Origin: a virus
Taxonomy: Duplodnaviria; Caudoviricetes
IMG/VR virus record: IMGVR_UViG_3300035502_001274
Span: 96,001 to 160,000 of that record
Length of the DNA: 64,000 bases
Strand: one strand, 5' to 3'
Shown piece by piece: positions 3,073 through 22,352 of this stretch (positions within the stretch are counted from its first letter, which is position 1; every line of letters begins with the position of its first letter). Under the pieces are notes generated by a model. It had not been told where the DNA came from. It was given only the letters and a program-made list of their open reading frames with translations, and did not search any database. A program made the translations under genes and the position numbers.

Positions 3073-3083
3073 ACTTTTTCCAT

Positions 3084-8260: not shown

Positions 8261-8459
8261 AAACCTCTCACTACCTTTCTTGATTACCTTTCAGATTTTG
8301 GATTTTGCGTGTGTATAGGGTATCCAATTACTTCCTAATGTACAGAAAACATTAAATTCTCACCTCATCTTTCAGAGAGATGATATAGCAACGTTTAACT
8401 TTAAGCGGAACTGCTCTCTAACACCGCAATAATTTACGAAGAATTGGAGGCAATGTACC

Positions 8460-19118: not shown

Positions 19119-20087
19119 ATGGCTCTATCTATCAAGCGCGGTGCTAACTTAGAGTATACCGCAGGTATCACCCACGATACCAGATTCCACAGCGACGACG
19201 TCTTTGCGACGGCACTGTTGACTATGGTGGCACGCTACCAGAACGGAATTGATGTTTTTGCGGACAACGACGCATCCTACAAGAACGACCAGCCGGAGTT
19301 CACCGTAGCCCGTCTGCCCATGAAGATCGCCGAGGCCATTAGCAGCGCCTATGATTCCGAGTACATCCCCGGCGAGTACCAGCGCCGACATCTCGTGTTT
19401 GATGTTGGCAATGGCGAGTTCGACCACCACACATCTCCTCGTTTGACCCGGGAAAATGGGATTCCTTACTGCGCATTCGGCAAGCTCTGGATGGCTTTTG
19501 GGCCATACTTTGGGCTGCGCCCTGAGTACGTCAACGCTTTCGATGTGGATTTTGTGCAGTACATCTGCGCAAATGATAACGAAGGTGTACCCAATCCCAT
19601 CAGCTCTACCATCAGCCTGATGAATACGGATGACCCAAAAGACGATGAGGCGCAGCGCGCGGCATTCGACGGCGCCGTAGAGTACGCATACAAGACTCTG
19701 TGGTTTCAGATCAAGAACCTGCTGAAGCGTCAGGAGCAGTACAGCGAAATCACTTCCGGTGGTAGGAGCGTCAAGTGTAAGATGGGTGGGAGCGTCGTCG
19801 TGTATGACAAGTACTACACCGCCTATTCGGTCGAGGAATTGCGGCCCAATGATGTCGCCATGATTTATCCGCACAATAGAGGCGGCTGGGCGCTGCAGTC
19901 TCTGTGTGACCGGAAAGGCCCTGGCCAGCGTATCAATCGCTGGAAAGCTCCTGATGACCTCTGGGGCAAGCCCGAATGGGAACTGCGCCAGAGAATCCAG
20001 GGGCTGCGGTTCTGTCATGCGTCTGGGTTCATGTGTACCTTTGACGACTACGAGGAAGCGCTCGCATTCGCGATGGACTACGTGTAA
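19119..20087 (+). CDS. MYG1 family (DHH-like) exonuclease
   Basis: THDTRFHSDDVFA, DVGNGEFDHH, PY..FG.LW and FCHASGF motifs. Confidence 0.85.
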   Translation: MALSIKRGANLEYTAGITHDTRFHSDDVFATALLTMVARYQNGIDVFADNDASYKNDQPEFTVARLPMKIAEAISSAYDSEYIPGEYQRRHLVFDVGNGEFDHHTSPRLTRENGIPYCAFGKLWMAFGPYFGLRPEYVNAFDVDFVQYICANDNEGVPNPISSTISLMNTDDPKDDEAQRAAFDGAVEYAYKTLWFQIKNLLKRQEQYSEITSGGRSVKCKMGGSVVVYDKYYTAYSVEELRPNDVAMIYPHNRGGWALQSLCDRKGPGQRINRWKAPDDLWGKPEWELRQRIQGLRFCHASGFMCTFDDYEEALAFAMDYV

Positions 20088-20190
20088 TGCTGAAAGAAAG
20101 AGCTCAAACGAGCTCTTTCTTTTTTGTGATTTGTATGAAATAAATTTCCATAATTTTCCAATTTAATAGTACATATAAGTAACAGTGATT

Positions 20191-20317
20191 GGCTGGGTGA
20201 TCGGCGACGGAGTCGCCGCTGGTTATCGAGTCCTCGCTCCGCCCAGCCTGGTAAACCCGCTTAAAAATTTACGCAGCTGCGTGCGCTTGGATCATTGTGC
20301 TCTGAAGCAGTCCTTAC
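20191..20317. repeat. structured repeat element, copy A
   Basis: Shares a GC hairpin, ATCGA, TTAAAA(A)TTTA and a 34-nt block cgcttRgatcRttgYRYtctgaaRcagtccttac with copy B. Confidence 0.8.
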
Positions 20318-20328
20318 CTTGAGAGCGA

Positions 20329-20363
20329 AAAAGTCCTTTGGGAGAAATCCCAAAGGACTTTTT
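20329..20363. terminator. terminator between cassette units
   Basis: aaaaagtcctttggga-gaaa-tcccaaaggactttt. Confidence 0.85.
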
Positions 20364-20369
20364 CAACGC

Positions 20370-20675
20370 TTATGAGAAGCTAGTAACGATAAATGCTGTA
20401 ATAGATGTGTCTTTTCCATAATGCTGCATTTTATCGCTTGACATTAAATATACAGCGTTCGATCCATTAGCATATACTATACAACCGACTGCCAACGGCA
20501 CGCCGCTGAGCTGCAAACCTGTTTGATCGCAATACCATACTATAGCTAAAACTCCATTTGGGGATAATGCAATTGCTGTTGAATTTGAACTGCAATTAGA
20601 TGAAAGCCAATAGCCTGTCCAATTCGATATATTTGATGTTACGTTTAGTGCATTACATGAAATGACTTCTGCCAT
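20370..20675 (-). CDS. AT-rich orphan ORF resembling a tail-fibre tip / receptor-binding domain
   Basis: 101 aa, beta-rich Ser/Asn/Gly/Trp composition, atypical low-GC codon usage, no obvious RBS, terminator at 20329-20363. Confidence 0.45.
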   Translation of the reverse strand: MAEVISCNALNVTSNISNWTGYWLSSNCSSNSTAIALSPNGVLAIVWYCDQTGLQLSGVPLAVGCIVYANGSNAVYLMSSDKMQHYGKDTSITAFIVTSFS

Positions 20676-20799
20676 GAGTTCAACGGCGCCGGGAGGCGCC
20701 GCGCGTCATCGACCTACATGGTGGTTCGGCCTAGAGCGCAGTTTAAAATTTATTCCGGCCAAATCCGCTTAGATCGTTGCATTCTGAAACAGTCCTTAC
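20671..20799. repeat. structured repeat element, copy B
   Basis: Direct repeat of 20191-20317 with different sequence but the same pairing in the closing stem. Confidence 0.8.
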
Positions 20800-20852
20800 A
20801 GGACTGGGATTTTATCTCTTAATCGTCAGAATGTCAGCAAATACCGACGGAA

Positions 20853-20864
20853 AACAAGGCCATA
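20853..20864 (+). promoter_or_regulatory. late promoter motif RACA-N6-TA (representative copy)
   Basis: Copies on + at 1763, 4309, 8420, 11642, 20853, 28379; on - at 27353, 35053, 35918, 45098, 56063. Confidence 0.8.
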
Positions 20865-20912
20865 ACGTCTTAGAGTATAATAACGAACCTTTTGAAAGGG
20901 CGTGAAATAAGT

Positions 20913-22352
20913 ATGGCAATTACCGAAGAGCAAGTTGGCAATGCCGTTGACACTGTCAAATTTGCAACTTTGGTCAAGCAGACATATGGCCGTTCTAGCT
21001 TGACGCGCAATGCCAAGGACACCATCGCGCAGTTCCCGGTGATTATCTCAGCGGGTATTCCCACTGATGATGCTGTCATCATTGCCAAAGCCATTGAAGC
21101 GCAGTATGCAGCTTTGATGGTTTCTGTCATCTCGGCCAACTCTGACTATGACCGCGGCAAATACAATAACCCCGCTGACTATCTGCGCACTTTCCACAAT
21201 AACGGCAATATCCCCACACTGTTCCGGACCATGGACTCCCAGCTCCCTGAGGATGTTCATGCAATCGAATGCGAACTCGCCAGTGCTCGTACGATGTACG
21301 CCCTGGAGAGTCTGGTCGACAAGGATCTGGTGATGGAGTGCTGGGATAGCGTCGATGATCGTTTCAATACCAGCTCTCTGAATCATAGCTACAGACCTGA
21401 GAAGCACACACAGGATGCGATGGAAAGCGTCGTGAAGAATCTGCGTGCGCTTCATCGTCCTGCCATGGAAGCCGCTGCTGACGATGTCCTGGCTGCTGCA
21501 GGTGTGGCTGGCAATCGTGCTGGTAAAGATGATATGGGTGCTCCTACCAAAGCTGATAAGGTGCAAACCACACAGCGTATGGTGGCTCGCATGGATCCCG
21601 TTACCAATACTCCCGTTCGGAACGCCAAGAAGGAGATCATCTACGATAAGGTGACCACCAAAGATGAAGTCGTTCGTGCTCCCTCTGCAACTGGTCGTCA
21701 GGAAATCGTGCGCAATGATAAGCTGACTACCCTGGAGCCCACGCTCATCAATCTGCAGCTGAACTCCCATCATGGCAATGCTCCTGTCATCACCCACAAC
21801 GTGGTGATGGGTGTCAAGGCCATGATTCGTCAGATTCCGCAGCAGTATATCGTCTCCAACCTGATTGAGGGTGTGAATAACTCTCGGGCCATCTTTGGGT
21901 ACGTGAAGTTCACTGAGCACCCTGTCCAGACCTTGATTGATCTGGTGACTGGCTGGAGCACTGCACGGGAGACCGCTGTCTCCGACAGAGATATGCGGAA
22001 GTGGATCCAGGCACTGAAACGCCGCAAGACCAGCGATCTGATCGGTAAGATGGCTTCTGGTGAAGGTATGCCTCCTCTGACCACTATCGTGATCACTACC
22101 TATGAGGCAGAGCAGATCGCCGAAGCGACCAATATCGATCTAAACGATCCCTATGCGGCAGCCAAGCTCATCTCCAAGTATTATCTGCTTGGCTTTATTA
22201 TCTATGATTCTGCCACGGGCAAGGTGAAGTCCATCTTTGATGGTGACTCCAACTTCTCCGTGACTACCTTAAATGGCCTGAAGAGCAAGCAGCAAAAGGA
22301 TCAGGAACTGACTCAGTTTGCTTCCTTCCTGCGAGCTTCTGGCAGAATGTGA
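20913..22352 (+). CDS. virion head protein (protease-processed)
   Basis: Late motif at 20853; clustered ALES/AMES/AMEA sites. Confidence 0.6.
   Translation: MAITEEQVGNAVDTVKFATLVKQTYGRSSLTRNAKDTIAQFPVIISAGIPTDDAVIIAKAIEAQYAALMVSVISANSDYDRGKYNNPADYLRTFHNNGNIPTLFRTMDSQLPEDVHAIECELASARTMYALESLVDKDLVMECWDSVDDRFNTSSLNHSYRPEKHTQDAMESVVKNLRALHRPAMEAAADDVLAAAGVAGNRAGKDDMGAPTKADKVQTTQRMVARMDPVTNTPVRNAKKEIIYDKVTTKDEVVRAPSATGRQEIVRNDKLTTLEPTLINLQLNSHHGNAPVITHNVVMGVKAMIRQIPQQYIVSNLIEGVNNSRAIFGYVKFTEHPVQTLIDLVTGWSTARETAVSDRDMRKWIQALKRRKTSDLIGKMASGEGMPPLTTIVITTYEAEQIAEATNIDLNDPYAAAKLISKYYLLGFIIYDSATGKVKSIFDGDSNFSVTTLNGLKSKQQKDQELTQFASFLRASGRM

Follow-up and report, generated by a model that had tools for sequence, protein, structure and literature searches.

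The morons of temperate phages are autonomous promoter-ORF-terminator insertions, while the attC sites of integrons lie 3' of promoterless ORFs and need the IntI tyrosine recombinase. The phage locus described here resembles the former in consisting of self-contained units set among core genes, often against the direction of local transcription and with a deviant GC content (38-44% against 49% for the genome), and resembles the latter in forming arrays of small ORFs that each carry a structured imperfect palindrome. It differs from morons in that its units make up one family with a shared structured leader in a single lytic-type jumbo phage, with no identified promoter, and from integron cassettes in that each element precedes its ORF on the 5' side, terminators accompany most units, and the phage encodes no recombinase.

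Two phage T4 genes, one for a baseplate protein and one associated with the tail fibre, provide examples of split translation start sites. In these helix-bridged sites, documented for genes 25 and 38, one small hairpin turns a spacing of 22-27 nt into 5-11 nt (PMC3014915). The leaders considered here share the arrangement of a sequence resembling a Shine-Dalgarno (SD) motif far from the AUG, with intervening RNA structure predicted to shorten the effective spacing; they differ in that 95-201 nt, arranged in one to three helical domains, would be reduced to 8-24 nt, and in that the SD-like motif is itself partly paired.

The promoter-early stem-loop (PeSL) cassettes of T4-type phages join a sigma-70 early promoter to a terminator within approximately 50-70 nt (PMC2839356, PMC4122927). 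Our units are likewise short repeated intergenic modules placed by terminators and flanking ORFans among core genes, and their mosaic sharing of sequence suggests recombination. The adjoining terminator and the flanking ORFans are found in both systems, whereas the sigma-70 early promoter is absent from the repeat described here; in its place is a leader of 110-230 nt with covarying helices and an SD-less start, which lacks any recognisable promoter of the phage's two classes. PeSL cassettes recombine to give mini-circles and between-strain indels; here, modules are shared in a mosaic among copies, and the only other assemblies of the locus are identical. In kind, the element belongs, as a variant, with the regulatory cassettes and leaders already known from phages; what is unusual about it is that the SD is uniformly lost and that neither canonical promoter is present.

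The locus and its host genome

The window analysed in this study is a stretch of 64,000 nucleotides, comprising bases 96001-160000 of a 188,841-bp IMG/VR virus record that is rated 76% complete. The record encodes split RNA polymerase beta subunits, a PhuZ-like tubulin, a chaperonin and SbcC-like proteins, and its closest relatives, at approximately 25% identity, are AR9/PBS1 and jumbo phages of Erwinia and Staphylococcus; the host genome of the leader family is that of an uncultured AR9/phiKZ-type jumbo phage. A sister contig in IMG/VR, IMGVR_UViG_3300035502_001271 (L048-L051; 69,138 bp, rated 28% complete), has identical terminators and the leader family in common with the record, and the two share no core genes and only one payload type. 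Read on its reverse strand, the sister contig ends inside a leader, copy G, at exactly the point where the record opens with the start codon of a payload. The matching ends and complementary completeness values suggest that the sister contig is probably the missing part of the genome; the two are probably parts of one genome of approximately 258 kb, with the assembly broken at the leader repeat.

Read on the minus strand, the locus in the window runs from element B through a 101-aa ORF, a terminator with a 17-bp stem, element A and approximately 65 nt of AT-rich sequence to a terminator with a 13-bp stem, the same order that was given in a preliminary description of this DNA. Element B (20671-20808; this and the following features lie on the minus strand unless stated otherwise) is a complete leader, made up of a hairpin P1, a P2/P3 arm containing a degenerate AT box, a hairpin P4, an 8-nt linker and the start codon. 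P1 (20790-20806) is a perfect 7-bp hairpin with a 3-nt loop and holds an invariant AAGG(A) in its loop and 3' arm; P2/P3 (20710-20776) is a long-range helix around the AT-rich box and includes U-G pairs; P4 (20684-20701) is a perfect 7-bp GC hairpin 8 nt 5' of the ATG, where an SD would sit. The ATG, which had been placed within the stem of element B, does overlap a weak 5-bp closing stem, but it sits 8 nt past the GC hairpin. The payload ORF (20370-20675; 101 aa) is an orphan of 38% GC, rich in Ser, Thr and Asn and without an SD, and its unit is closed by a terminator with a perfect 17-bp stem and a T run (20327-20364), which abuts element A.

Element A (20191-20317) is the leader of a decayed unit. 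Its AT box (20248-20276) and P4 (20202-20218), which like that of B is a perfect GC hairpin, are intact, while the 5' arm of P1 is missing. An AT-rich remnant (20123-20190) with ORFs of only 3 and 15 codons follows, and then a terminator with a perfect 13-bp stem (20093-20122); the terminators of both units are perfect inverted repeats, and these hairpins and terminators agree with the preliminary description. That account went on to propose a two-unit array: two leaders are indeed present, but element A has lost the P1 5' arm and its ORF and is not a second cassette. We considered whether the AT-rich remnant derives from the beginning of the B ORF and rejected this, as 82 of 500 shuffles score as high and the likeness is not significant. 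An sRNA family of Salmonella, STnc320, gives a sub-threshold Rfam match at 20087-20139 of the window (35.9 bits against a gathering score of 50); the match extends no further than the terminator hairpin and the A-rich stretch that leads into it, and most likely reflects a resemblance of shape.

The 34-nt block and TTAAAA(A)TTTA box originally reported as common to A and B were recovered as the core of a 57-nt direct repeat with 70% identity. A covariance model seeded with A, B and one copy from another contig scores the known copies at E-values of 1e-10 to 1e-30; this, together with nine further copies, indicates that the likeness of A and B exceeds chance. Upstream of element B, sigma-70-like hexamers (20809-20837; 10 of 12 positions matching) end 2 nt before P1, and an AR9-type late promoter, AACA-N6-TA, on the plus strand (20853-20864) serves the divergent virion-protein gene at 20892-22352; this promoter is outside the element and marks its boundary. 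The locus is base-for-base identical in three samples, IMG 3300035502, 3300036769 and 3300043105, which apparently contain the same strain.

A dispersed family of covarying leaders

At least eleven copies of the leader (A to K) are present in the record and the sister contig, along with one payload that has a leader truncated where a contig stops. Copy C is at genome position 169610, beyond the window, a diverged copy is at genome position 89755, and one further copy lies at the start of the record; on the sister contig, five copies were found in an exact-motif scan of IMG/VR and a sixth in a hairpin scan. The preliminary description had recommended looking for additional copies, especially in or next to fibre genes. 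The nine beyond A and B supply them, yet the cassette units are not beside fibre genes: they are scattered, in both orientations, between core genes that include those for a DnaB helicase, an RNA polymerase beta subunit, a head protease, a polymerase and virion proteins, and some are grouped in tandem (B-A and F-G-D). Identity between copies is mosaic, in that blocks of 20-34 nt, exact or with one mismatch, are differently combined among otherwise unalignable leaders; a 28-nt stretch of the AT box, for example, is identical in A, H and I.

The family appears confined to this genome. A blastn search of phage and E. coli collections with the locus gave no match, an exact-motif scan of viral contigs found the sister contig only, and a search for a syntenic locus with the neighbouring 486-aa protein returned nothing. 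Pattern scans gave one match in metagenomes and 12, in coding DNA, in prokaryote genomes, all of which we judged to be chance. The covariance model detected no leader copy in 79 loci of other phages that encode the N-terminal domain of payloads D and E described below. Rfam 15 gave no match in the window at gathering thresholds; at E-values up to 10, the region around the locus gave only terminator-shaped and microRNA-like chance matches, and no ribozyme or intron-like family. The leader is a genuine, multi-copy, structured element with no counterpart in Rfam or in any other phage searched.

All leaders follow the layout seen in B, with P1, a variable central arm, P4, and 6-17 nt without an SD before the ATG. 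In ten of the eleven copies P1 forms a perfectly paired 6-9-bp hairpin with a loop of 3 nt, and it occurs in five stem sequences. Its motif is AAG in all eleven copies and AAGG in ten, and the AAGG shifts by 2 nt relative to the centre of the hairpin between stem versions; this combination implies that what is retained is the pairing of the stem and the sequence of the motif. P1 is followed by a short T run and then by the long-range helix P2/P3, whose arm ranges from approximately 60 to approximately 160 nt. The arm often contains the 29-nt AT box, identical or near-identical in four copies and degenerate in two. A structured hairpin in the AT box was rejected, given a consensus folding term of only -3 kcal/mol and no covariation; what is conserved in the box is therefore its sequence. 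All eleven copies have P4 as a perfect GC hairpin, with nine different stem sequences. A closing stem that sequesters the start codon was also considered as a general feature and discarded, as it is present in some copies only, judged by eye.

In the alignment of seven copies fitted to the model, from which our pair counts are taken, 94% of cells are paired compared with 80% in shuffles, and eleven base pairs are altered on both sides. The helices covary, as the preliminary description had proposed to examine with a covariance model, with a score of 0.303 against 0.113 for shuffled alignments and at most 0.086 for slid-partner controls; since the family is known from one phage lineage, all of this covariation comes from paralogues, which may exchange sequence. 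Several P2/P3 positions have U-G as their most frequent pair, pointing to the sense-strand RNA as the strand that folds. P1 and P4 contain no G-U pairs at all and are equally compatible with palindromes at the DNA level. The sense folds of B, G and D are more stable than those of shuffled sequences (z = -2.3, -4.4 and -2.8, respectively), with a z of -1.4 for the antisense fold of B; the sense folds of A (z = -1.4) and J are no better than shuffles.

Payload genes and their expression signals

Each intact leader heads a complete, ATG-initiated ORF of 101-265 aa with its own stop codon, in the same orientation as the leader. The low-GC payload genes encode proteins in which Ser, Thr, Asn, Gly, Ala and Tyr make up more than half of the residues and charged residues are few, as in surface or fibre proteins. 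Searches with four of the payloads, including an exhaustive search of 1.84 billion cluster representatives, found no homologues, and the structural models of the 101-aa payload are unusable (AF2 pLDDT of 35, ESM Atlas 0.34), so that neither lends support to the tail-tip-like character ascribed to this ORF in the preliminary description. Payloads D, E and F have a common N-terminal domain of 105 aa followed by differing C-termini. The D/E domain (ILSGK...GKITGTM type; PHROGs 13589 and 38337, function not assigned) occurs in 317 viral loci, among them other phages of 210-290 kb, usually inside larger proteins; there it is preceded by ordinary SDs and by no such leader. Within the two contigs, none of the payloads matches a segment of a larger gene. 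Payload F (L048:181-1019, minus strand), which is closely paralogous to E, lacks one base at codon 7 and is thereby split into frames of 41 and 221 aa; a pseudogene, an error of assembly or a shifted start could each account for this.

The late promoter of the phage is of the AR9 type, AACA-N6-TAA, with the consensus reported in PMC5312081. It occurs at 30 intergenic sites in the two contigs, usually with a C-rich N6 (in the window, for example, at 20853-20864 on the plus strand and at 8364 and 27364 on the minus strand), and its genes are mostly structural, with SD-bearing leaders of approximately 31 nt. The early motif, ATATCATT-N3-RTG, is often accompanied by CGTATTT approximately 17 nt upstream and is found at 26 intergenic sites, including plus-strand examples at 3083, 5888, 10741, 13874 and 27420 of the window; the ATATCATT-type motif is unlike the AR9 early motif in sequence. 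Exact and one-mismatch scans detected neither promoter at the leaders, and early and late matrix scores at every leader fall below the training range, with the exception of an early-like site beside J (18.8 bits). The 3' end of this site is 2-3 nt before P1, so that P1 would be the 5' end of the J mRNA. P1 itself was rejected as a degenerate late promoter, with matrix scores of -1.6 to -21 bits against a training minimum of 6.3. The sigma-70-like hexamers immediately before P1 are restricted to two of the eleven copies, B and D, and are therefore probably not the promoter of the family. The AT box was likewise dismissed as a T7-type promoter; a hairpin-reading single-subunit polymerase of this type was not found, in a search with an uninformative control.

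The gene upstream of B, H and J is in each case divergent, so that these copies need a promoter of their own. Seven copies come directly after a strong terminator and an eighth after a weak one, in each case with the terminator sequence outside the conserved repeat, and most units also carry a terminator of their own. We note that one terminator of 34-37 nt occurs, with at most one mismatch, at four places: genome positions 95760-95796, approximately 200 nt before the window, L048:8528-8564, and two more on the sister contig. One of these copies is directly upstream of leader E.

Genes of this phage normally have strong SDs of the AAAGGAGG type, with a median anti-SD duplex energy of -5.6 kcal/mol. 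The 101-aa ORF, described from the outset as lacking an SD, has an energy of -1.7 kcal/mol, and at eight of the nine payload starts the energy is above -3.1 kcal/mol, so that no SD is present at the normal distance in these eight. The SD-like motif is instead the AAGG(A) of P1, upstream. Between the AAGGA and the AUG lie 95-201 nt, of which the predicted folds leave 8-24 exterior nucleotides and one to three helix junctions; the motif is largely paired within P1. In five copies an ATG occurs 10-15 nt after the AAGGA and opens an upstream ORF of 2-15 codons, in four further copies an ATG comes directly after the motif, and in two there is none. These ORFs were considered as a conserved leader peptide, which was rejected: among the nine copies that have them neither length nor sequence is conserved, and the other two copies have none.

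An ordinary gene offers a comparison. A P-loop (kinase-like) gene at genome position 41857 on the minus strand, beyond the window, has a start region consisting of AAGGA, an 11-nt spacer and ATG, which repeats a 20-nt stretch of the leader, the P1 3' arm and the run to the ATG, with one inserted base; the corresponding spacer in the leader is 10 nt. To judge from this resemblance in sequence, a portion of the leader may be derived from a conventional ribosome-binding site or may work as one.

A proposed role for the leader and its alternatives

The payloads do not have the strong SD typical of the phage's other genes, and the leader therefore probably governs their translation. We infer that the leader is transcribed, and give an even chance to the full reading: that A and B are lineage-specific structured 5' leaders that head moron-like units in a jumbo phage of approximately 258 kb, and that the leader governs SD-independent translation. 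As the likeliest mechanism, we propose that 30S subunits would be recruited at the AAGG(A), acting as a long-range, split or standby ribosome-binding site; that the folded P2/P3 and P4 would shorten the path from there to the AUG; and that the closure of P1 and the AT box could be points of control for a trans-acting factor. Duplication is the probable route by which the family spread, and would account for the tandem groups B-A and F-G-D; recombination among the blocks common to the copies may have played a part too, and would account for their mosaic modules. Three observations count against ribosome recruitment of this kind. The AAGG(A) is mostly paired in P1; the folded path, at 8-24 nt plus one to three helix junctions, exceeds the optimum; and an ATG after the AAGGA would in some copies capture ribosomes into upstream ORFs, so that no single ribosome route fits all copies. 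A stronger version, which we consider rather unlikely, is that the leader represents a new class of RNA device for SD-independent, factor-gated translation, through which a jumbo phage of the nucleus-forming type would express a rapidly diversifying family of small proteins, of the virion-surface or adhesin kind, as a private class. Such a device may take the form of a very long structure-bridged ribosome-binding site, or of a translational operator.

Several features of the family would also be expected of a PeSL-like regulatory or recombination cassette, in which the conserved blocks, P1 with its adjoining run and the AT box, would mainly be a phage-specific promoter or insulator beside terminators, with homology that serves chiefly to shuffle ORFans, and the RNA fold would be secondary. 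Eight copies abut an upstream terminator, seven of them a strong one, and one terminator recurs at four places; the ORFan payloads are scattered between core genes in both orientations; the blocks are mosaic, down to the AT-box stretch common to A, H and I; and the AT box is kept as sequence without covariation, as a site for a protein or polymerase would be. We nevertheless regard this as a somewhat improbable account of the whole. The leaders have neither early nor late promoter scores except beside J, and sigma-70-like hexamers in only two copies; P2/P3 and P4 covary, with U-G pairs of the sense strand; the uniform absence of SDs needs an explanation at the RNA level; and there is no presence/absence variation across the three samples, although these are apparently of the same strain. 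The two readings are not mutually exclusive, and we prefer the leader reading; the conserved blocks of a 5' leader could also supply the homology for PeSL-like shuffling. The need of B, H and J for their own promoter could alternatively point to a signal in the DNA itself, with P1 and P4 extruded as hairpins that form a third promoter class for one of the phage's multisubunit RNA polymerases or a site for a structure-specific protein, and with the 5' arm of P1 untranscribed. In nearly all copies the P1 and P4 palindromes show perfect Watson-Crick pairing, with loops of 3 nt and no G-U pairs, P1 is the first conserved feature past the upstream terminator, where a promoter would be expected, and the invariant AAG could be the initiating sequence. 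This explanation is distinctly unlikely, however: P1 scores far below the late-promoter minimum, the AAGG moves by 2 nt against the hairpin centre between versions, the early-type promoter of J would start transcription upstream of P1, and no hairpin-reading single-subunit polymerase was found, albeit with an uninformative search control.

The preliminary description also raised, as a fallback, the idea of an unknown RNA or ribozyme family. This holds insofar as the leader is a structured RNA with at least eleven copies, covariation, G-U pairs and no Rfam counterpart, while a ribozyme is unsupported. A free-standing non-coding RNA or self-cleaving ribozyme, only incidentally adjacent to ORFs and with unit A as its minimal form, would agree with the retention of the AT box, P4 and terminator in a unit without a payload, and with folds more stable than shuffles in several copies (z of -2.3 to -4.4). 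It is made quite improbable by the ten other copies, all of which stop 6-17 nt short of an ATG-initiated ORF that shares their orientation, by the loss of half of P1 from A and a fold there no better than shuffles, by the variation of the central arm from approximately 60 to 160 nt, and by the lack of any match to an Rfam ribozyme or RNA family even at E = 10. The main proposal of that description, a store of promoterless, interchangeable receptor-binding tips that would reach a fibre gene through site-specific recombination, transfer from an RNA template or trans-splicing, is largely refuted and in our view very improbable. The payload composition, the number of copies and the shared N-terminal domain with different C-termini in D, E and F do suit it, but the payloads are all complete ORFs with their own ATG, and the units are dispersed and not beside fibre genes. 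Reverse transcriptase (PF00078) and tyrosine recombinase (PF00589) are absent from both contigs (approximately 258 kb), in searches that detected their controls, and no serine recombinase was found there either. With PF00078 absent and no payload repeating part of another gene, a diversity-generating retroelement or other RNA-templated transfer does not fit; neither does an attC site, with the element 5' of the ORF and PF00589 absent, or an intron, with no intron-like Rfam match. The identity of the locus in three samples also speaks against a tip store, a weak point given that the strain is apparently the same.

Were the leader only a PeSL-like module, that mode of genome shuffling would extend from T4-type to jumbo phages. 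If the leader replaces the SD for a whole family of genes, it would be a compact natural case of long-range, structure-dependent initiation, and would add a third expression class, beyond those of the early and late promoters, to phages of the AR9/phiKZ type. The payloads are the fastest-evolving genes of this phage and are orphans among approximately 1.8 billion cluster representatives; the leader thus marks where the lineage invents or acquires small surface-type proteins, and as such a marker it is useful for annotation and for studies of host range.
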